From IMG/VR virus record IMGVR_UViG_3300046689_000199: a DNA stretch of 64,000 nucleotides, one strand, 5' to 3'. A model generated the notes under the pieces. That model did no database searches, was not told the DNA's origin, and was given only the letters and a program-made list of their open reading frames with translations. The translations under genes and the position numbers were made by a program. The DNA comes from a virus. Of the stretch, positions 4,708 to 55,846 are shown piece after piece. The stretch's first letter is position 1; every line of letters starts with the position of its first letter.

Positions 4708-5057
4708 ACGTCGAAGTTGAGATGCCTTGGCTCACTCCCAAGGTCGATCAGCGTGTGGCTTTCATGGTCGAGAAGGGGGCTCTGGACATCGCTCGGGAAG
4801 CGGGCACGAACTTCATCATGAGCCTGCTCGACGAGGGCGAGGAAGACATGTCGGCAGAGGAGATAGAGCGCTGGGAACGGACCTGTGACAACTGCGGGAA
4901 GTACGTCCCTCCCGAGCCTGACAGGCCCAACTACACCGAGTTCTACAGCGGATACGTCACCCGCACCATCGAGGGAGTGCAGATCATGCTCGCCTTCGGC
5001 GTCTGCGGTACATGCAAGGAAGACACAGCAACCATGAAGGGGAACACAGATGACTGA
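4704..5057 (+). CDS. Hypothetical Zn-ribbon protein (CDNCGK...CGTCK)
   Basis: ATGA overlap; two CxxC pairs. Confidence 0.55.
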   Translation: MNVEVEMPWLTPKVDQRVAFMVEKGALDIAREAGTNFIMSLLDEGEEDMSAEEIERWERTCDNCGKYVPPEPDRPNYTEFYSGYVTRTIEGVQIMLAFGVCGTCKEDTATMKGNTDD

Positions 5058-5457
5058 ACTGATCGACTTCGACCTGGCCGATGTCCTGGCCGAGTCACGT
5101 GAGTACATCGACAAGTACGGCTGGGGCAAGGGCGAGTTCGTCGTCAAGACGTACGACGACAACGACGACGACTACGAGGTGATCGGCTACTGCGCGATGG
5201 GCGGTGTCCTGTACAGCCAGGAGATCTTCGAGTCCGAGTGCTCCACGGACCCGCGGACTCGCGCTGTCGCTGCTGCTCTGGCCAACGCTCTGGGTCTGGC
5301 CAAGCACCTCTCCACGGAGTGCACGGACGACGGTCAGTGCTCCTGCGTCATCAACTGGGTCACCTCCTGGAACGACGACGACGACCGCACCAAGGACGAT
5401 GTCCTGGACGCCTTCATGAAGGCCGAGAAGATCGCTCGGGGTGGCACCGTTGACTGA
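5050..5457 (+). CDS. Hypothetical acidic protein
   Basis: 8-nt overlap with the upstream gene; codon bias. Confidence 0.5.
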   Translation: MTELIDFDLADVLAESREYIDKYGWGKGEFVVKTYDDNDDDYEVIGYCAMGGVLYSQEIFESECSTDPRTRAVAAALANALGLAKHLSTECTDDGQCSCVINWVTSWNDDDDRTKDDVLDAFMKAEKIARGGTVD

Positions 5458-5932
5458 GTACCAGCAGCGAAGGGACGCCTTGGATCAGAAGATCCTCGAC
5501 GACATCGAGAAGCACGGCTGGTCGGACATGAGCATCTTCCCGACCAAGGACCTGCCCGGTCTGCCGTTCAACTACACGGTGGGCTTCTCCACACATCACG
5601 ACCAGCCAGAGCTGCTGATCATGGGCATGGACCACCGACAGATGCACGGTGTCCTTGGATCAGCCTTCGTACGGATGGGAGGTGGTGAGAGGTTCCGTGC
5701 CGGCGAGTACTACCACGAGGTTCTGGTGGAGCACCGGGTGGCCTTCGTGGAGATCCCGGACCCGATCGACAACGGGTACCCGATGTCCATGACCCACCGC
5801 CTGATGGGTGAGTTCAAGGCCCTGCAGCTGGTCTGGCCAGACATGAACGATCGGTTCCCCTGGCACGTCGGCTTCGACAAGAACTACCTCGATCACCAGG
5901 AGCTGCTCGGCCCCTGGAAGGGAGACCTCTGA
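5441..5932 (+). CDS. DUF4262-like protein
   Basis: Segment PFNYTVGFSTHHDQPELLIMGMD resembles the conserved core of the DUF4262 family found in Actinobacteria and their phages, as recalled from memory (not searched). Confidence 0.5.
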   Translation: MAPLTEYQQRRDALDQKILDDIEKHGWSDMSIFPTKDLPGLPFNYTVGFSTHHDQPELLIMGMDHRQMHGVLGSAFVRMGGGERFRAGEYYHEVLVEHRVAFVEIPDPIDNGYPMSMTHRLMGEFKALQLVWPDMNDRFPWHVGFDKNYLDHQELLGPWKGDL

Positions 5933-8727: not shown

Positions 8728-8867
8728 CCACATCGCTCGACGAGCCCCGCTACAAGCACATCAACCACCCCAGTCGACGCGAGATGTTCCTACTCCTCGT
8801 CGTCCTCGTGGGTCTGCTGATCGCCATGGCCTCCATCACGATGCTGGCGCTCAGCTCACAGACCTAG
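8724..8867 (+). CDS. Small membrane protein (47 aa, GTG start overlapping the upstream stop)
   Basis: Manual translation: VTTSLDEPRYKHINHPSRREMFLLLVVLVGLLIAMASITMLALSSQT. Confidence 0.35.
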   Translation: MTTSLDEPRYKHINHPSRREMFLLLVVLVGLLIAMASITMLALSSQT

Positions 8868-8886
8868 GCGTCTCGGGACGCCTAGA

Positions 8887-8918
8887 CCCCCGTCACATCG
8901 GTGTGGCGGGGGTTGTTT
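8887..8918 (+). terminator. Intrinsic terminator (cccccgtcacat-cg-gtgtggcggggg followed by ttgttt), preceded by a second palindrome taggcgtc-tcgg-gacgccta at 8865-8885
   Basis: Two consecutive hairpins seen directly; a U-rich tail follows the second. Confidence 0.5.
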
Positions 8919-8945
8919 CATGTCCACCTCGAAAGGAACAGATAC

Positions 8946-9206
8946 ATGTCGGTTCTCTCACACATCGAGATCCCCGAGGGCAAGCACGTCCTGAGGATCC
9001 TGGACAACAGCGGCGACTCCGTCATCACCTACGACCCGACCATCGAGGCCGAGGTCGCCAAGGCGATGGAGGCGTTCGACGAGTCGATGGGCAAGGGCAT
9101 GCGCGCCTTCGTCCTCGACGACGGTGCCGGCGGTGCCCACGTCTCCAGCACCTTCGAGCAGGAGGCCGTGCACACCGTCATCCAGCCGCAGTACGTCGGC
9201 GGCTGA
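8946..9206 (+). CDS. Ubiquitin-like (beta-grasp) small protein with a C-terminal Gly-Gly (86 aa), paralog 1
   Basis: VLRILDNSGDSVITYDPTIEAEVAKAMEAF aligns with ubiquitin [29 protein letters not shown]. It ends ...VIQPQYVGG and is a paralog of the 10117-10368 protein. Confidence 0.6.
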   Translation: MSVLSHIEIPEGKHVLRILDNSGDSVITYDPTIEAEVAKAMEAFDESMGKGMRAFVLDDGAGGAHVSSTFEQEAVHTVIQPQYVGG

Positions 9207-9207
9207 T

Positions 9208-9672
9208 GTGACGATCGCCCAACAGCGGGCGGCAGCGGAGGAGCGTGCCAAAGCGCTCCTCCGCAGCATCGTCCCTGCAGACGAGTGGAGGTACGTGCCC
9301 AGACGCAACATCCTCGGTCAGATCATCACCCGTGATCCCACCCACATCGAGTTCCTGGGCCACACCAAGAGGTTCACCTACCAGGTCTGGTTCAACCAGA
9401 CCTCGGAGAACATCCAGCAGATCGACTCTCGTGGGTACAGCCACGGGGTCTGTGGTGGGCCCTACGCCTTCGGCGACTACATCGTTCCTGGTTCTGCTCG
9501 GACCGGACGTTCCCCCGTGGTCGACCAGGAGCGTTACGACCGAGCCCGACAACAGGGGTACCGAGAGAACACGATGCCGGCGCATCTGCCAGACCATGAC
9601 ATCTGGCTCGGCCAGTACCTCGCTCTGAAGTACGACGAGCAGAGGTTCATGGAGTACGCGAACATCTTCTAG
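9208..9672 (+). CDS. Partner protein of Ubl paralog 1 (154 aa, GTG start 1 nt after the Ubl stop). Its C-terminal domain is homologous to the C-terminus of the 10368-11210 protein.
   Basis: Translationally coupled. Shares QIDSRGYSHGVCGG...HDIWLGQYLALKYDEQRF with VQVDEHGCKLGRVCV...ADGWVGQLLAIKTDEALF of the second partner. Confidence 0.55.
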   Translation: MTIAQQRAAAEERAKALLRSIVPADEWRYVPRRNILGQIITRDPTHIEFLGHTKRFTYQVWFNQTSENIQQIDSRGYSHGVCGGPYAFGDYIVPGSARTGRSPVVDQERYDRARQQGYRENTMPAHLPDHDIWLGQYLALKYDEQRFMEYANIF

Positions 9673-9847
9673 ACCAGTGGGCAGCGGGTGGTTCCTATCC
9701 CCCGAAGGGCCAGAACATGGGCCCGCTGTCCACCTCCGCTGTGCTTGGGGGTCATAGCCCGTCACACACACCGTTTCTACTGGGGGGTTGGCCGGTGTGT
9801 GTGGTGGAGGGTGACCCCATGCCACCCCACACATGAAGGGAAGATCC

Positions 9848-10120
9848 ATGCAAGGAGATCCGTACCAGGTAGCGCTCAGCTACTGCGACGGCGTCGTGAT
9901 GATGCACGACCACGAGGACGTCCACGAGGCCGTCCTGGACTACGCAGACGCTCTCCAGGAGGCCTTCGAGCCGACTGTGGACGAGCACGACCGCCGGCAC
10001 GTTCGTCAGGTCACCCTCATGAAGTTCAACAAGGAGGGCGCGATCGTCCGGCACATCGACTCTGGAGTCATGAACGATGACTGCAGTCACCGAGTAACAA
10101 CCACGAAGGGAACACAGTGA
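9848..10120 (+). CDS. Hypothetical protein (start MQGDPYQ; CACATGAAGGGAAG element upstream)
   Basis: Its stop overlaps the GTG start of Ubl paralog 2 (GTGA). Confidence 0.5.
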   Translation: MQGDPYQVALSYCDGVVMMHDHEDVHEAVLDYADALQEAFEPTVDEHDRRHVRQVTLMKFNKEGAIVRHIDSGVMNDDCSHRVTTTKGTQ

Positions 10121-10368
10121 GCACATCCACCGAAGAGAAGAGCACTCTCCACATCATGAGCAAGGAGGGTGACACCAGGATCATGTGGGACCCCCGGATC
10201 CCCGCCGAGGTCGCAGCAGCGAAGGCCGCGTTCGACGCGGCGAAGACCGGCGGCATGCTCGCCTACTCGGTCGACCCGAACTCCGGGGAGAAGACCGGGA
10301 CGGTGATCCGGGAGTTCGACGAGACGGCGGGCAAGATCATCATGTCGCCGCAGCTCGTCGGCGGCTGA
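10117..10368 (+). CDS. Ubiquitin-like small protein with a C-terminal Gly-Gly (83 aa), paralog 2, GTG start
   Basis: Ends ...IMSPQLVGG. Matches paralog 1 at HIMSKEGDTRIMWDPRIPAEVAAAKAAF and across the C-terminal half. Confidence 0.6.
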   Translation: MSTSTEEKSTLHIMSKEGDTRIMWDPRIPAEVAAAKAAFDAAKTGGMLAYSVDPNSGEKTGTVIREFDETAGKIIMSPQLVGG

Positions 10369-11210
10369 TGGCCGTCTTCGGCCCGACCATGAGAGTGCCG
10401 ACCTACAAGCGGAAGCTGAAGAAGCCGCTTGACCATCTCCCGCCGGGCTCGAAGTACGACACGGACCAGGACGGCTGGTACACGATGCCGTCCCTGACCT
10501 ACACCACCAGCACCACACTCACCTTCACCCAGGACATCGTCTGGAACGGGTGGACGGTGGGCAACACCACCACCGGCACCTCGACCTTCATCACCGACGA
10601 GCAGTTGGTGCGGTTCGAGGGCACTGGGATCACCTGGGACTGGATGAAGCGGACTGGCGACATCGGTCTGCCCGTCCAGTACCAGAACGTCTACAACCAC
10701 TGGCAGGTGATCCACGAGCGCGAGGTTCCTTCGCCAGAGGAGCTGCAGCGTCGTGCTGACGAGGCCCAGCGTCGGAGGGAGCAGGAGGCCCGTAGACGGC
10801 TCGAAGCCGAGCAGAGGTGGCAGAGGGCCGAGGAGGACCGGGTACTCGCTCAGATCAAGGGCCTGGAGCTCCTAGAGATGCTCCTGACCGACGAGCAGGC
10901 CGAGCAGTACGCCCTGAACGGCTCTGTGCCGGTTCGGGGCTCGGACGGCGGGATGTACGAGATCGACACCCTGTACGGCGGGGTGCACGGGAACGTCGTC
11001 CAGGTCGACGAGCACGGCTGCAAGCTGGGGAGGGTCTGCGTCGCTCCACGGATGAACGTGGGCGGTCATGCTCTCCCGATGGCTGATGGCTGGGTCGGCC
11101 AGCTGTTGGCGATCAAGACCGACGAGGCCCTGTTCCGAGCACGTGGGAACTGGTCCTCGGTTCGAGCCTGCGCTCATCCGGATGTTCCCATCCTGGCGAG
11201 CGCAGCCTGA
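10368..11210 (+). CDS. Partner protein of Ubl paralog 2 (280 aa; ATG overlaps the Ubl stop in TGATG). It has a Thr-rich N-terminal region and a coiled-coil region rich in Arg, Glu and Gln. Its C-terminal domain is homologous to the 9208-9672 protein.
   Basis: See the alignment to the first partner; conserved HG.C and W.GQ.LA.K.DE..F motifs. Confidence 0.55.
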   Translation: MAVFGPTMRVPTYKRKLKKPLDHLPPGSKYDTDQDGWYTMPSLTYTTSTTLTFTQDIVWNGWTVGNTTTGTSTFITDEQLVRFEGTGITWDWMKRTGDIGLPVQYQNVYNHWQVIHEREVPSPEELQRRADEAQRRREQEARRRLEAEQRWQRAEEDRVLAQIKGLELLEMLLTDEQAEQYALNGSVPVRGSDGGMYEIDTLYGGVHGNVVQVDEHGCKLGRVCVAPRMNVGGHALPMADGWVGQLLAIKTDEALFRARGNWSSVRACAHPDVPILASAA

Positions 11211-11216
11211 CATGGC

Positions 11217-11402
11217 GAGACCCCCGGAGGTCGGCATCTCCGGGGGCCTCGATCACCATGAAAGGAATGGGGCCAGCGTAGCTGGTCTCACGGAGGGGCA
11301 CCTGCATCGGGGGATCAGGTGCCCCTCCTCTGTCTCCTCTCCGCTATGGGGCGGAGAGGGCACACAAGCTGCTGGGGGCCCTGGATCGGGGGGTCAGGGC
11401 CC
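11217..11402 (+). ncRNA. Structured 215-nt intergenic region with four consecutive GC-rich stem-loops and no plausible ORF; candidate regulatory RNA (attenuator or antiterminator-like)
   Basis: Four hairpins at 11222-11247, 11304-11336, 11337-11361 and 11377-11402. Two of the loops share ATCGGGGG. Contains an orphan copy of the CCATGAAAGG element followed by a 4-codon mini-ORF. Confidence 0.3.
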
Positions 11403-11425
11403 TCAGCTTCACTTGAAGGGAAGAC

Positions 11426-17576: not shown

Positions 17577-17758
17577 GCATCGAGATCCCGCGGATCGACA
17601 CGGTGATGCACTTCACCGACGAGATCGCGGTGGTGGAGATCTCCACGTTCCGTGACGAGCTCACCCTCGTCGTCGGAGCGCCGTACACCAACGTCTCGAC
17701 CGTGCACCACGAGGGTCAGACGATCATCACCATCGGGAAGGACCCGGAACACACATGA
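17573..17758 (+). CDS. Hypothetical small protein
   Basis: ATGA overlaps on both sides. Confidence 0.45.
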   Translation: MSIEIPRIDTVMHFTDEIAVVEISTFRDELTLVVGAPYTNVSTVHHEGQTIITIGKDPEHT

Positions 17759-18681
17759 GAAGGATGAAGCAGGCCGCCCTCGCACTGGTCGGGGGCGGCC
17801 TCGTATTGAGCGGGTGCGGCTACAACGTGCCCTCAGACATGGTGGCGATCCACGTGAAGAGTGGGCCCACCGACTCCAAGCAGGTCGTTGGCTGCGTCGA
17901 CTCGGCGTCCAGGAAGCACTTCTGGCAGACCAACGACTCCTACCCTCTCTTCCCCACCTCCGAACGGGAGTGGGACGCGACCGGCCAGTCCGGCAGCGAC
18001 AGCAAGGACTTCACCTCGGTCACCAAGGACAAGGTGGTCATGAACGTCCCGGTGACCATCCGGTTCACCCTGAAGACCGACTGCCCCACGCTGGAGAAGT
18101 TCTACACCTCCTACGCACGTCGGTACGGGGTGTCCTTCAAGAGCGACGGCAGCTACAACGACCAGTGGGAGACCCTGCTCCGGAAGCTGGTCGCTGACCC
18201 GTCCGACCAGACCCTGGACCGGATCGTCCAGCAGTACAACTGGCAGAACGTCTGGAACGACCCGAAGACCAAGACCGAGATCGAGCAGCAGATGAACGAC
18301 GCGCTGCAGTCGGACAGCTCGCTCATGGTGCAGACCGCCAAGGGCAGCTACTTCGACGGCATCTCGGTGCTGATCGGTACCCCGCAGCCACAGAACCCGG
18401 ACCTCGCCGCCGCAGTGGCCTCTGAGCAGACCCTGGTCGCTCAGGCCGACGCAGCACGGGCCCAGGCCAAGGCGGACAAGGCCAAGGCAGTCGCGGAGAC
18501 CGCGGTCGCCAAGGCGGAGGCCGCGAAGCAGCGTGCCGGCATCGAGGGCTACGAGCTGAAGGGGATGACTCCCGCACAGGCGGTCCGGGCCTACAACGAG
18601 GCCCAGCTGATCGCTCAGGGTGGGAACCCGTACCAGCCGCAGTACATCGTCGGTGGCACCGTTCCCCAGGGAGGCCAGTGA
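17755..18681 (+). CDS. Secreted lipoprotein (lipobox LSGC) with an SPFH/band-7-like body and a coiled-coil tail rich in Ala and Lys
   Basis: MRRMKQAALALVGGGLVLSGC signal and lipobox; the central domain plus AQAKADKAKAVAETAVAKAEAAKQRAG coiled coil resembles the HflK/C (SPFH) architecture. Inferred only. Confidence 0.5.
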   Translation: MRRMKQAALALVGGGLVLSGCGYNVPSDMVAIHVKSGPTDSKQVVGCVDSASRKHFWQTNDSYPLFPTSEREWDATGQSGSDSKDFTSVTKDKVVMNVPVTIRFTLKTDCPTLEKFYTSYARRYGVSFKSDGSYNDQWETLLRKLVADPSDQTLDRIVQQYNWQNVWNDPKTKTEIEQQMNDALQSDSSLMVQTAKGSYFDGISVLIGTPQPQNPDLAAAVASEQTLVAQADAARAQAKADKAKAVAETAVAKAEAAKQRAGIEGYELKGMTPAQAVRAYNEAQLIAQGGNPYQPQYIVGGTVPQGGQ

Positions 18682-21742: not shown

Positions 21743-23242
21743 ATGTCGGACACGAAAGACAGCATGTGGAGTGACAAGGCAGCGAAGAAGGACGTGAAGG
21801 CGGCCAACGACTTCCTGAAGGACGTCGCCGGCGGTCGGATCACGGTGGAGAGCGCATTCGAGTACCGCGAGGACGGCGGAATCCGGATCGCACTCCCCCA
21901 GGTCCCCTCGAAGCTCAGCCTGAAGAAGGCAGCGAACATGCTGCTCTCGCAGGCGGAGGCCGAGGAGGCCATGCACGAGTACACCAAGCCGTTCGACTGC
22001 CGTCCCATGGACGGTGCCTTCGCCTTCAACAAGGTCCTGAAGGACGTCTACGGCATGACCGCGCTGGGCAAGGAGATCCGGAGCTTCTTCGGAAGCCAGC
22101 TCCCCGAGCTCCGCACGGTCAAGGTCAGCCCGACCGAGGAGGTCCAGGTGCCGTTCGGCCTCCTGGAGTTCCCGCCGCTGGGCGCGCAGTTCTACCTGCA
22201 GGAGCGCGCCGACGACGACTACGGGATGGCGTTCCAGGTGTACGTCATGGCCAAGAAGAAGTACGAGGTGGAGATCCGCGGCCTGCTGATGCTGGTCGAG
22301 GCCTACATCCGGGAGCACTCGATCTACCGCAACAAGGCGCTCATCGGCGTCGGGCGGATCGTGAACGGCTCGTACAAGGAGCCGGAGTTCTTCAACCCGT
22401 ACACGGTGGACCGCACCGAGGTCGTCTACTCCAAGGACGTCTTCGAGGCACTCACCGACGAGATCTGGGGCGTGGTCGAGACCGCGGACCTGCTTCGTCA
22501 GAACGGGAACGACCTGGGCAACAAGGTGCTCCTGCACGGGGAGAACGGCACGGGTAAGACGCTCGCCGCCGCGATCTCCGCGCAGATCTGCGTGGAGAAC
22601 GACTGGTCGTTCATCCAGGCTCGGTGGGACGAGGACCTGAAGCACGTCATGCGCTTCGCGGAGCTCCTCGGCACGCCGGTGGTCCTCGTGATCGAGGACG
22701 TGGAGAAGCTGATCAGCAGCAGCCCGCAGAAGATGGACCAGCTCCTGGAGCAGTTCGACGGGATGCGGACCAAGGGCCGTGAGGTCCTGCTGCTGATGAC
22801 GTCCAACCACGTCGGTGAGCTCCCCAAGGCGATGACTCGTGCGGGGCGCATCAACCGGATGATCTACGTCAGCGACCTCGACAAGGAGGGCGTGGAGCGC
22901 CTGATCAACGTGCTCATCCCGGCGGCTCAGCGGGAGGAGCTGGACTACGAGCAGCTGCACACCGCCTACGAGGGGTTCTCTCCCTCGTGGATCGTGCAGG
23001 CTCTGAAGGGTGTGTCCAAGCAGAGCGTGATCCGTACCAAGGAGCTCGGCCAGCCGCTGGCGACCGAGGACTTCGTGAGGTGCGCCAACGCGCTGCGTGC
23101 GGCCTGGCAGCTGCACACGGACACCGAGGCACGTCCCTCCAAGCCGGTCCTGGAGACCGCGCTGCGTGAGGTCATCGCTCAGGAGCTGCAGGCCCACTTC
23201 GTGGACGTCGGCGACTCGGGCGACATCCTGGTCCGGGACTGA
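21743..23242 (+). CDS. Classic-clade AAA+ ATPase (499 aa) with a 260-aa N-terminal domain of unknown function
   Basis: Walker A LLHGENGTGKTLAA; Walker B VVLVIEDVE; sensor-1 and second region of homology MTSNHVGELPKAMTRAGRINRMIYVSDLD. Confidence 0.8.
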   Translation: MSDTKDSMWSDKAAKKDVKAANDFLKDVAGGRITVESAFEYREDGGIRIALPQVPSKLSLKKAANMLLSQAEAEEAMHEYTKPFDCRPMDGAFAFNKVLKDVYGMTALGKEIRSFFGSQLPELRTVKVSPTEEVQVPFGLLEFPPLGAQFYLQERADDDYGMAFQVYVMAKKKYEVEIRGLLMLVEAYIREHSIYRNKALIGVGRIVNGSYKEPEFFNPYTVDRTEVVYSKDVFEALTDEIWGVVETADLLRQNGNDLGNKVLLHGENGTGKTLAAAISAQICVENDWSFIQARWDEDLKHVMRFAELLGTPVVLVIEDVEKLISSSPQKMDQLLEQFDGMRTKGREVLLLMTSNHVGELPKAMTRAGRINRMIYVSDLDKEGVERLINVLIPAAQREELDYEQLHTAYEGFSPSWIVQALKGVSKQSVIRTKELGQPLATEDFVRCANALRAAWQLHTDTEARPSKPVLETALREVIAQELQAHFVDVGDSGDILVRD

Positions 23243-52441: not shown

Positions 52442-54322
52442 TCAGCGTCCCTTCTTCGGCGGAGGCTTCTTCGCCGTCTTCTTCGCAGGTGAAGCGGTCT
52501 TCGCGGTCTTCTTCGCAGCCAGCGCGTTGGCCGGCTTCTGGGCCTTCATCTGCTGGAGCTTCAGCTTGGTGTTGGTGGCAGCCGAGCGGTCCTTGACCCG
52601 GATCTGCTCCTTGGTGCGCTTGTGCTCGCGGTTCGCCATCGTGTCGGAGAGCCGCATCTTCTCCTTCTCGCGCGAGTGCGCGCTCTGCGCAGTCTTCTCC
52701 GCCAGCATCATCTTCTCCTTCTCGCGCTGATGCTGCGGTCCAGCGTTCGGGTCCTCAGGCGGCGGCTGGTTGGTGGCCTCGGCCTGCATCTGAGCCTGCT
52801 GGGCCTGAGCGTCTGCCGTAGCCGGGTGCGGGGTCTCGGAGTGCATCTGGGCCTGCTCCGGGGTCATCCCCTGCGCCGTCATCTCGGCCTTCTGCTGCAG
52901 ACCGAGCAGCTCCATCTGGCCCGAGCCGTACTCCATGGCCTGCTGCTGCTCCAGCATGATCCGCTTGTAGTCCACGTCCTCGTCGGTCATCTCGGGCAGG
53001 CGGGCGATCTCGCGGATGTACTTCTCCAGCTCCGGGTCCGGGAACCACTGCATGCCCGCGCCGGCGGTCGAGGAGATGAAGGCAGCCAGCTGGTCCAGAG
53101 CCGGCGGGTCCACGTTGGTGGGCTCGAACCTGGGCAGCTCGTCCAGCTTCCAGCCGTTCACCGCGAACAGCCGAGGCACGGCGTACCGGTTCAGGGTGTC
53201 GGCGATGGTCTTGGTGATCGCGTTCAGAGCGGCCCGGAAGATGCCGGTCTTGTCGGTGTGCAGTGAGTAGGAGCCGGTGTCCTCGTGCCCGACCAGGATG
53301 AAGTCCGCCAGCACGCTCATCAGGATCCGCTGCTCGTAGCGGTTGATGATCCCGTTGGTGTCGAACTGACGGGTGCCTCCCGAGCTCATCAGCTCGAAGT
53401 CGAAGAGGGGCTGCTTGGTGTCCGGGTCGTACTGGGTCGGCAGCACCAGGCCCTCGTTCTCGTCACGCCTGACCCCGCGGACCATCTTCTTGAAGGCGTC
53501 CACGGTCTTCGCCTGAGGCGTCCCCTTGGCCGCCGTCAGGTAGTCCGCGGGGACCCTTCCTACAGGCATGCCCGCCAAGTCTCGCTCAACGCCGATCGCC
53601 TCGAACTCCTCCAGGCGCTTCTTGAAGTACCAGGAGCGGTAGCTGCTCCGGAGCAGGGACATGCCCTCGGGGTTGCCCTTGGCGATGGAGGTGCGGAACA
53701 GGATGCTCTTCTCGATCGGCAGCACCGTGGTCTGGTACCGAGGCGGGGCCATCTGCACCATCGCCCGGATCCCACCGGTCTCGTCGAAGGACCAGCGCAT
53801 CAGGGTCTCCTGCGCGCGGATCGGGATCTTCCTCCAGCCGATCTTCCCGTCCGTGTACTTCGAGCGCTTCCGGGGGTCCTTCTCCCAGGGCCCGATCCGC
53901 TTCTTGTAGACGATCTCGTGCCAGGACCAGCCGTAGGTCATCATCGAGAGGATCTCGCCGATCAGGTCGTCCCAGCTGTGGGACATGTCCTCCATACAGG
54001 ACTCCAGGAACTCCTGAGCCTGCTCGCCCTCCTCGCCGCCCTCGGGCGGGAGCACCTTCCACTCGACCTCACGGATCAGCTTGTCGATGCTGAACAGCAG
54101 CGCCCCGACCATGGAGTCGTTGGACGCCATCTCCCGGTAGACCCGGACCGCCTTGCGGCCACGCAGCGCCGGCAGGAACTCCTCGTCGACGTAGCCTGAG
54201 ACCCGCTTCAGCCCGGAGACACCGAGCTCCTCCATGGGCCCGACGCGCTGGGGGATCTCGTCGCCCGCGTTGTCCTCGTCCCAGGTAGAGATGTCGCCCT
54301 GGGGAAGCCGCACGTCTGCCAT
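52442..54322 (-). CDS. Portal protein (626 aa) with a Lys/Ala-rich C-terminal tail
   Basis: Position immediately downstream of TerL; size. Confidence 0.6.
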   Translation of the reverse strand: MADVRLPQGDISTWDEDNAGDEIPQRVGPMEELGVSGLKRVSGYVDEEFLPALRGRKAVRVYREMASNDSMVGALLFSIDKLIREVEWKVLPPEGGEEGEQAQEFLESCMEDMSHSWDDLIGEILSMMTYGWSWHEIVYKKRIGPWEKDPRKRSKYTDGKIGWRKIPIRAQETLMRWSFDETGGIRAMVQMAPPRYQTTVLPIEKSILFRTSIAKGNPEGMSLLRSSYRSWYFKKRLEEFEAIGVERDLAGMPVGRVPADYLTAAKGTPQAKTVDAFKKMVRGVRRDENEGLVLPTQYDPDTKQPLFDFELMSSGGTRQFDTNGIINRYEQRILMSVLADFILVGHEDTGSYSLHTDKTGIFRAALNAITKTIADTLNRYAVPRLFAVNGWKLDELPRFEPTNVDPPALDQLAAFISSTAGAGMQWFPDPELEKYIREIARLPEMTDEDVDYKRIMLEQQQAMEYGSGQMELLGLQQKAEMTAQGMTPEQAQMHSETPHPATADAQAQQAQMQAEATNQPPPEDPNAGPQHQREKEKMMLAEKTAQSAHSREKEKMRLSDTMANREHKRTKEQIRVKDRSAATNTKLKLQQMKAQKPANALAAKKTAKTASPAKKTAKKPPPKKGR

Positions 54323-54343: not shown

Positions 54344-55846
54344 TCACACCATCAGGTCCAGGTCCTCGGCGACCTCCTGGCTCTTGTTCTGGACCGAGCC
54401 CACCACCCAGTTCCCGGGCTTCCGCGCAGCGTCCTTGTTCTGACGCATCTCCTCCTCGATGAAGGTGGGCCCGTCGTCGCCCTTGATCATGATCGGGTGT
54501 GCGGGGATCGCCCGCTTGGAGACCAGCCGGTAGCACAGCGCCATCGAGCAGATCTCGTCCGGGAGGTGGAACTCCTTCCCGCGCGCGTAGAGCATGTCCA
54601 CCGAGGCGTACAGGTGGGCCTTGTAGAAGACCGGGACCCGCGGAGCCAGCCAGCGGTGGTTCTCGATCGAGCTCACGTACTCGCTCAGCATGTTGTCGCG
54701 GTTCGCCCCGGTCATCAGGAAACCCCGCGCCCGCCTGTCGATGTAGTCCGCCACCACCCCACCCAGCCCCGTCGCGTCGTGGATGCCTTCGGCGTTGTAC
54801 TCCTTCATCAGCCGGTTGAACTCCCCGATCATCACCGGGTAGGGCAGCCGGCGCATCCGGGACCAGTGCACGACCTTGCACGGGAACCGGGTCACGTCGG
54901 CCACCGTGATCACCGTCCAGTCCTGCTCCTTGGCCCAGTCCGCGCCGATCACGTACTCCGCGTCGCCCTTGGGGTCCTCAAAGCGGTGCACCTGGCGCTC
55001 CTTGGACACGCTCTCTCGGATCGCCTTCTCGGGTAGACCGAACATCTTCTCCACCGAGGCCGAGTCGATCGCACGGGAACCGATGCTGGGCTCACCGAGG
55101 TCGTACTCCACCCGCCACATCTCGGCGGGGATCTCCCGGCGCTTCTGGTCGATGGTCTCTTGGTCCAGCCAGCCGTCGATCGGGTTGGAGGTGTCCTTGT
55201 AGCACCAGGTGAAGATCGGGAGGTTCTCCTCCTGGAACCGCGCGTACTCGTGCGCGAAGGTCTTGTCCGGGTACTGCCAGGTGCTCGACATCGCTGTCTG
55301 CGGGCGGACGATCGTGCCCTCCCAGTTCTTCTGGGGCATCGGCTGGCCCTTGGCCGCGTCGAAGATGGCCTGGTCCATCTCGTCGATCTCATCGAGCAGC
55401 AGGGTGGGCGGGTGCGGTCCTCGGACCGTCTTCTGGGAGGCCGTGAGCGGCATGATCGTGGCTCGGTTCGTGAGCTTGATCTTGGTAGCCGACTCCTCCT
55501 TCACCAGGTAGGAGGGAGCGTTGCTGTGCTCCCAGGCGTCGCGGATGGTGTTGTGGATGTTGATGGACTGGTTCAGGGAGCCACCGACGATGTTCACGTC
55601 AGAGCCCAGGACTGCGGCCTTGGTCAGACCTAGGATGGAGAGCAGCCTGGACTTTCCGGACAGGCCGCGAGAGCCGTGGATGAGAATCTGCGGCTCTCGG
55701 TTGAAGTAGGCGGTCGCGAAGGCGTCGAACGGAGCGTCGTGGTCGCTGCAGACCTTGTGCCTGGGGATGGTGTGGCCCCAGAGGGCCTTGACTACCTCGT
55801 AGAGCTCGTCGTCGGTCCTAGGTCCGCGTCCCAGGATGATGCTCAC
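54344..55846 (-). CDS. terL: Terminase large subunit (GTG start)
   Basis: Walker A GSRGLSGKS; Walker B LLLDEIDEM; C-terminal nuclease-like segment VIGADWAKEQDWTVITV. Confidence 0.85.
   Translation of the reverse strand: MSIILGRGPRTDDELYEVVKALWGHTIPRHKVCSDHDAPFDAFATAYFNREPQILIHGSRGLSGKSRLLSILGLTKAAVLGSDVNIVGGSLNQSINIHNTIRDAWEHSNAPSYLVKEESATKIKLTNRATIMPLTASQKTVRGPHPPTLLLDEIDEMDQAIFDAAKGQPMPQKNWEGTIVRPQTAMSSTWQYPDKTFAHEYARFQEENLPIFTWCYKDTSNPIDGWLDQETIDQKRREIPAEMWRVEYDLGEPSIGSRAIDSASVEKMFGLPEKAIRESVSKERQVHRFEDPKGDAEYVIGADWAKEQDWTVITVADVTRFPCKVVHWSRMRRLPYPVMIGEFNRLMKEYNAEGIHDATGLGGVVADYIDRRARGFLMTGANRDNMLSEYVSSIENHRWLAPRVPVFYKAHLYASVDMLYARGKEFHLPDEICSMALCYRLVSKRAIPAHPIMIKGDDGPTFIEEEMRQNKDAARKPGNWVVGSVQNKSQEVAEDLDLMV

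Follow-up and report, generated by a model that had tools for sequence, protein, structure and literature searches.

Two coupled gene pairs in a phage genome

The DNA that we analyzed (the window) is a stretch of 64,000 nucleotides with 64% G+C, IMG/VR virus record IMGVR_UViG_3300046689_000199, and is a phage genome. Between positions 8946 and 11210 it carries, on the + strand, two copies of a new two-gene module that is widespread on mobile elements, with further copies in many uncultured phages and on plasmids of Bradyrhizobium. An earlier, sequence-only reading of the window had described two paralogous cassettes here, each pairing a small protein that ends in Gly-Gly with a translationally coupled partner, and had likened the two proteins to ubiquitin and to an E2 enzyme, respectively. 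The layout is as it had been described. The small open reading frames (ORFs) lie at 8946-9206 (small protein 1, 86 amino acids [aa]) and 10117-10368 (small protein 2, 83 aa), and each is coupled to a partner ORF, at 9208-9672 (partner 1, 154 aa) and 10368-11210 (partner 2, 280 aa). In the first cassette, the stop codon of the small gene (9204-9206) is separated by 1 nt from the GTG start codon of partner 1 at 9208, a start that is supported by homologues that begin with (M/V)TIAQQRAAA. In the second, the last base of the TGA of the small gene (10366-10368) is also the first base of the ATG of partner 2 at 10368, giving a 1-nt overlap.

The small proteins form a beta-grasp family with a near-invariant Gly-Gly terminus

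Small protein 1 ends in QPQYVGG and small protein 2 in SPQLVGG, with the Gly-Gly codons at 9198-9203 and 10360-10365, respectively. Both genes finish with GGC GGC TGA, and VGG followed by the stop closes both proteins, as had been reported. Neither tail has an Arg or Lys beside the diglycine, and trypsin would therefore not produce the usual Gly-Gly remnant. The two are paralogous, with 40% identity over 78 aa (E = 9e-10). Small protein 1 matches the hidden Markov model (HMM) of the family with an E value of 3e-31, and its kin in a 'PQYVGG' subfamily (P0001, P0003, P0004 and others) are 84-94 aa long and start with MSVLS.

A profile search of 5.8 billion proteins recovered 115 homologues of the small proteins, all of them metagenomic, 61-102 aa in length and lacking any Pfam domain. 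A conserved C-terminal Gly-Gly, on which the sequence-only reading depended, is present throughout this set (115/115) and in 59 of the 61 small-protein ORFs in the window and 57 fetched loci (designated by L and a number below). It is also found in four of four copies from Bradyrhizobium. No other feature of the family is as conserved as the terminal Gly-Gly. The codons that specify it vary among GGC, GGT, GGG and GGA, with GGA rare as the first of the two (3 of 45 distinct Gly-Gly ends), and the Gly-Gly is kept even in loci where another gene separates the small gene from its partner. This synonymous variation, together with the persistence of Gly-Gly in separated pairs, indicates that selection acts on the protein rather than on ribosome binding at the next gene, and we therefore rejected a Shine-Dalgarno origin for the Gly-Gly.

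The predicted structure of the small protein is a beta-grasp fold, ββαββ(α)β, in which the tail (residues 79-83) is modeled with low confidence. The predicted structure and the conservation within the family support the earlier proposal of a beta-grasp protein with an exposed C-terminal diglycine. The close alignment to ubiquitin that had accompanied that proposal did not hold up: a profile comparison gave a probability of 0.1%, and the resemblance is one of fold only. There was no match to the small protein in Pfam (E up to 1) or NCBIfam and no related sequence in the PDB, and hhalign comparisons with ubiquitin, ThiS, MoaD, CysO, Urm1 and SAMP1/2 all gave probabilities below 1%. The small proteins are a new family of ~75-90 aa with a ubiquitin fold, a flexible and free five-residue tail, and a near-invariant terminal Gly-Gly.

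The partners share an α/β domain with invariant residues

Partner 2 has four parts. Residues 1-103 (10368-10676) are a variable, Trp/Thr-rich N-terminus that is predicted to be disordered, residues 104-172 (10677-10883) form long Arg/Glu-rich helices, residues 175-261 (10890-11150) make up a conserved α/β core consisting of a helix, four strands and two helices, and the C-terminal tail, NWSSVRACAHPDVPILASAA, runs to the stop codon (11151-11210). An AlphaFold2 model of the 280-aa protein, built with 57 sequences, had a mean predicted local distance difference test score (pLDDT) of 82-96 per 10-residue block over residues 121-270, and a pLDDT below 50 at residues 1-80 and 87-103. The strands of the modeled core fall within residues 186-224 and the two helices at 238-259. 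The conserved residues of the core are N209, G217, C224 (codon 11037-11039), P227, P237, D240, Q245 and N261; in the model, the invariant Asn immediately precedes strand 3, and strand 4 ends with the Cys. Partner 1 consists of the domain only, with an insertion of ~34 aa after Cys82, and ends in ANIF. It is most closely related to the partners encoded after PQYVGG small proteins in L005 and L056-58.

That the two partners have a C-terminal domain in common was borne out more fully by profiles than by direct comparison, as BLASTP aligned only 34 aa (E = 3e-5) and an iterated HMM extended the match to ~110-150 aa (E = 1e-24 to 1e-44). The motif W.GQ.LA.K.DE..F, noted previously, is present in both. 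The domain had also been credited with invariant His and Cys residues. The Cys is indeed conserved, but no His is invariant in ~187 homologues, which rules out a Cys/His catalytic pair. The segments that had been paired, SHGVCGG and EHGCKLG, are out of register: partner 1 has the invariant Cys at C82 (VCGGP, codon 9451-9453) and partner 2 at C224 (RVCVAP), which is not the Cys of EHGC. A Cys-His(-Asp) triad and a JAMM metal motif are likewise absent, and there was no match to a Pfam peptidase.

An exhaustive HMMER search with a profile of the domain alone, run over 1.84 billion cluster representatives, yielded 818 members of the partner family at E values up to 1e-3, and residues were counted over ~187 of these. 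The Asn (187/187), the Cys (186/187), two Pro (187/188 and 183/183), the Asp (183/183) and the Gln (183/183) are essentially without exception, and the final Asn is kept in 167 of 170. Three subtypes can be told apart: HGN..DEHGC, which includes partner 2; CAHP; and CGGP, which is short, has the ~34-aa insertion and includes partner 1. The region in front of the domain is variable, and may consist of nothing at all, of Trp/Thr-rich repeats with a long charged helix, or of a zinc ribbon. In a Pfam census of 144 long partners, the only match was a zinc ribbon (Phage_zn_bind_8) at the start of this region, in 7 of the 144. The N-termini of long partners have repeated WxxW and Thr-rich stretches followed by a long Arg/Glu-rich helix (10368-10883 in the window).

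The C-terminus of the long partners is conserved: many partners end in Ala-Ala (99/188) or Val-Ala (23/188), with 97 of 109 in the HGN subtype, and the Ala codons vary synonymously. Such an end resembles a degron of the ssrA/ClpX type, or else a second C-terminus that E1 could activate.

The partner was compared with known families and had no match in Pfam, NCBIfam or among PDB sequences. A PDB profile search returned designed 'Cake' propellers, which we rejected as artefacts because only a repeated β-hairpin motif matched and no single stretch was significant. The partner has a ~105-aa α/β domain without recognizable relatives, with invariant Asn, Cys, Pro, Asp and Gln.

The two genes are obligately linked and co-diversify

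The ORFs downstream of the small genes were searched with an iterated HMM, and wherever a locus had enough DNA they included a homologue of the partner. The start of the partner is mostly within -13 to +11 nt of the stop of the small gene; in a minority of loci a small additional gene lies between them. In L001, an HNH endonuclease gene lies between the small gene and the partner (10255-10656 / 10901-11374 region), and the partner there is split over two frames. Searching from the partner side gave the same linkage: directly upstream of three diverged partners of the CAHP type lay, in each case (3/3), a gene for a Gly-Gly-ended beta-grasp protein. These searches support the earlier statement that the small proteins are kept beside a Cys-bearing partner. 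No fusion of the two proteins was present among the 188 partner homologues searched.

The matrices of pairwise identity for small proteins and for partners were strongly correlated (r = 0.74, a value not attained in any of 2000 Mantel permutations). Where a phage has two cassettes, a small protein and its own partner share their nearest relatives elsewhere, and the tail motif of the small protein tracks the subtype of the partner. From the correlation, the kept pairings and the tracking of subtypes, we conclude that cassettes are inherited and duplicated as units. The linkage of the two genes is obligate, and the pair is co-diversifying.

The module in phages, plasmids and databases

Neither protein was found in 50,697 GenBank phage records, which were searched by megablast with positions 8800-11400 and by tblastn with small protein 2 and two partner-domain queries. 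A CAHP-type domain query matched 13 Bradyrhizobium plasmids, several of them with two matches. On the four plasmids that were inspected, a 73-aa gene ending in FFPRLVGG lies directly before a partner-like gene of ~140 aa (L066, 4683-5366; L068, 2674-3336; L069; L070). Cultured Bradyrhizobium strains carry the pair (WP_247973535.1 and WP_346732911.1). On the Bradyrhizobium plasmid p195_2, both genes of the module are frameshifted. The Bradyrhizobium genes are all annotated as hypothetical and have no Pfam match; their neighbors are toxin-antitoxin genes of the PIN/HTH and AbiEi kinds, a 'plasmid stabilization protein', insertion sequence (IS) elements and small hypothetical genes. Within ±20 kb of the module on one of these plasmids there was no E1 or JAB gene. 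A scan of GTDB representative genomes gave no true match, with a peptide pattern that was too narrow and that for this reason missed the Bradyrhizobium copies.

The four module proteins had no match in Pfam, PHROG or NCBIfam, and they and a 95-aa ORF between the cassettes (see below) had none in PADLOC. The papers searched gave no description of a pair consisting of a Gly-Gly protein and this partner. For neither family is there a model in Pfam, PHROG or NCBIfam, or a solved structure. What is familiar in the module is the fold and the Gly-Gly tail; what is unfamiliar is the partner, the genetic context and the complement of enzymes.

Genomic setting of the module

The assignment of the window to a phage was confirmed by a Mu-like portal, a terminase and DnaB. 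The portal of Mu type (52442-54322) and the terminase (54344-55846) are encoded on the - strand, as is a DnaB-like helicase (560-1858). The nearest relatives of the portal among GenBank phages are from Arthrobacter phages, at ~46% identity, and the element that carries the module is a soil actinobacterial phage. We found no tRNA genes in the window. From ~26.5 kb on, the - strand encodes the structural genes, and the module sits among the early genes of the + strand, at 8.9-11.2 kb, amid small genes without assigned function. The window also encodes an AAA ATPase (21743-23242) and, in the early region, an SPFH/Band-7 protein (17755-18681). An SPFH/Band-7 gene is also found in the early regions of the module-bearing L001 (4704-6377), L044 and L050. 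Genes for DUF6197 and DUF4262 proteins lie side by side upstream of the module (5050-5932), and the same two families occur upstream in L005.

Clusters of G+C-rich inverted repeats (hairpins) flank each cassette, at 8864-8913, 9677-9818 and 11216-11407, and the inverted repeat at 8885-8914 fits the pattern of a terminator. Between the cassettes, on the + strand, lies a 95-aa ORF (9833-10120) whose stop codon overlaps the GTG start codon of the second small gene (GTGA). Neither Pfam nor PHROG contains a match to it. It is often a neighbor of the module, with homologues close by in nine other fetched loci (L005, L009, L028, L029, L031, L036 and L056-58), but is not a core component.

A Pfam scan of 37 other ORFs in the window showed no E1 (ThiF/MoeB) or JAB domain, in agreement with the sequence-only reading, which had reported no E1 or JAMM gene nearby. 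E1/ThiF/MoeB domains were also absent from the precomputed Pfam annotation of the flanks of L001, L002 and L005, and there were no sulfur-metabolism genes near the module. Neither the window nor the fetched flanks showed an E1, E2 or deubiquitinase gene.

What the module might do

We tentatively favor a model, to which we give somewhat less than an even chance, in which the Gly-Gly tail engages the Cys site of the partner, perhaps through a covalent bond formed once a host E1-like enzyme has activated the tail. In its favor are the conservation of the Gly-Gly and of the partner residues, the linkage and co-diversification of the two genes, and the lack of pathway enzymes in the window and flanks. 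In this model, the small protein and the partner would form a specific complex in which the tail reaches the site of the invariant Cys. The C-terminal carboxylate would probably be activated by an E1-like adenylyltransferase of the host (MoeB/MoeZ/ThiF type), and would then probably be held on the partner Cys as a thioester or an acyl-(per)sulfide. Targeting of the complex would fall to the partner's variable N-terminal region. Such a partner would be a carrier analogous to an E2, yet without a recognizable E2 fold or sequence. That a host E1-like enzyme probably activates the carboxylate is suggested by what an invariant C-terminal Gly-Gly signifies in every characterized beta-grasp system. 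E1-type activation has been deduced elsewhere from a conserved C-terminal Gly or Ala (PMC10097602). For Urm1, one report describes conjugation that is independent of an E2 and that needs a cysteine in the target (PMC9574740).

Several observations weigh against this model. No activating enzyme was identified in the window or in the fetched flanks, and a host E1 is an assumption. The two small proteins without Gly-Gly, which are the most distant members of the family, end in PG (L017) or have a C-terminal extension of 20 residues (L019). A partner-domain ORF of 611 aa in L061 (4001-5836), near integrase and resolvase genes, has no adjoining small gene. The invariant residues of the partner, for which no structural relative was detected, could be structural or could line a non-catalytic pocket. 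L061 also contains, 1.4 kb upstream of the partner-like ORF, a 59-aa ORF (2394-2573) that begins with TTFDPDAEKII and resembles a relic of the last strand of the small protein.

The strongest of the alternatives, which we consider only somewhat less likely than the covalent model, is that the two proteins form an obligate heterodimer without covalent chemistry, in which the small protein regulates, inhibits or stabilizes the partner and the Gly-Gly tail lies in the conserved pocket. MoaD docks into MoaE, and the docking here would be of that sort without the chemistry. This explanation includes a toxin-antitoxin-like or addiction-type pair, and the module does resemble type II toxin-antitoxin systems in having coupled genes with the small one first, in being mobile and present in multiple copies, and in lying near plasmid toxin-antitoxin genes. 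The co-diversification of the pair, and the 'plasmid stabilization protein' and IS elements around it in Bradyrhizobium, also speak for this explanation. The lack of an activating enzyme in the window and flanks is as expected for such a pair, and Ala-Ala or Val-Ala ends, which look like ssrA/ClpX degrons, would fit a labile component. The joint decay of both genes in p195_2 is neutral. However, a strict terminal Gly-Gly on a beta-grasp tail is a hallmark of carboxylate chemistry and would be an exceptionally strict requirement for docking alone, and an invariant Cys (186/187) is unexpected in a structural pocket. Moreover, the module had no PADLOC match and no toxin or antitoxin family appeared in the Pfam and NCBIfam scans, and we know of no antitoxin with an invariant C-terminal Gly-Gly on a beta-grasp fold.

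A much more doubtful explanation is that the module acts as a decoy for, or an inhibitor of, host immunity that works by conjugation of ubiquitin-like proteins (Bil/Bub, or CBASS Cap2), with the Gly-Gly protein, and perhaps the Ala-Ala-ended partner, jamming E1 or E2. Anti-phage systems of the host conjugate ubiquitin-like proteins or cGAS through a C-terminal Gly or Ala (10.1101/2023.09.04.556158; PMC10097602), and both module proteins have conserved C-termini of small residues. The early position amid small genes without assigned function, and the duplication and diversification of the cassettes, would also suit a decoy. It would leave unexplained an obligate partner with invariant, catalytic-looking residues of its own, and the same pair is found in accessory regions of Bradyrhizobium plasmids. 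The small protein resembles BilA and BubA in fold but not in sequence. The Bil (ubiquitin-like protein, E1, E2 and deubiquitinase), Bub and type II CBASS Cap2/Cap3 systems are host-encoded and always come with E1, E2 and deubiquitinase, whereas the module is encoded by mobile elements and consists of two genes with no E1, E2 or deubiquitinase and no PADLOC match.

One interpretation drawn from the sequence-only reading, in which the module conjugates and a host E1 charges the partner as a UBC-like E2, is very unlikely. The partner does recall UBC enzymes and the Prok-E2_A to E families superficially: it is a small domain whose core runs helix, four-stranded meander, helices, and it has a conserved Cys preceded by a conserved Asn. 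But it had no Pfam match to UBC, RWD or Prok-E2 (E up to 1), a Foldseek search of the PDB, which was not restricted to the domain, gave no match at E values up to 0.001, and hhalign probabilities against four E2s were below 0.4%. The E2 analogy is unsupported because all three of these comparisons were negative. The partner also has no HPN motif, and its Asn and Cys are not at the UBC positions, the Cys being in the loop after strand 4 in UBC enzymes and at the end of strand 4 in the partner. The partner differs further by its invariant Pro, Asp and Gln.

Least probable of all is a sulfur carrier of the ThiS/MoaD type, thiocarboxylated by host MoeZ/MoeB and used by the partner to thiolate a nucleic acid or small molecule: a beta-grasp protein with a Gly-Gly tail whose gene overlaps that of its partner does recall moaD-moaE, and the tail pattern hydrophobic-P-x-x-x-G-G appears to resemble the tails of MoaD, CysO and SAMP1, but the small protein has no sequence relationship to ThiS, MoaD, CysO, SAMP or Urm1 (by Pfam, PDB profile search and the hhalign comparisons above), E1 (MoeB/ThiF), JAB and sulfur genes are missing nearby, and the partner is very small, is phage- or plasmid-borne and has no similarity to PP-loop proteins, MoaE, ThiG or CysM.

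One phage protein with a related design is tail assembly protein I (TAPI) of lambda, a ThiS/MoaD-like beta-grasp protein whose domain closes with a conserved Gly (PMC1779556). The gene for TAPI belongs to the tail gene cluster, next to that for the JAB-NlpC/P60 peptidase TAPK, and the protein has a further C-terminal domain. In contrast, the module is encoded among the early genes on the strand opposite to the tail genes, its Gly-Gly is a true C-terminus, there is no JAB domain, and there was no PHROG match.

Significance

Bacterial conjugation of ubiquitin-like proteins was recently shown to be a weapon of the host against phages. A family of Gly-Gly-ended proteins with a ubiquitin fold on mobile elements would show the other side of this conflict, and the module might reveal a carrier chemistry for ubiquitin-like proteins that does without the UBC fold. 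Extending the model of a Gly-Gly tail engaging the partner Cys, we consider it rather improbable that phages and plasmids have a minimal transfer system of their own, in which the Gly-Gly protein would be charged by a host E1 that the element hijacks, or by another route, and carried on the Cys of a non-UBC domain, and a modular N-terminus (Trp/Thr repeats, coiled coil or zinc ribbon) would choose targets in the host or in rival elements during establishment. The alignments made here would suffice to define both protein families. Because the pair occurs in cultured Bradyrhizobium strains, its function can be tested without isolating uncultured phages. If true, the minimal transfer system would be an unseen branch of prokaryotic ubiquitin-like signaling, comprising at least 800 sequence clusters and extending from phages of Actinobacteria to plasmids of Alphaproteobacteria.

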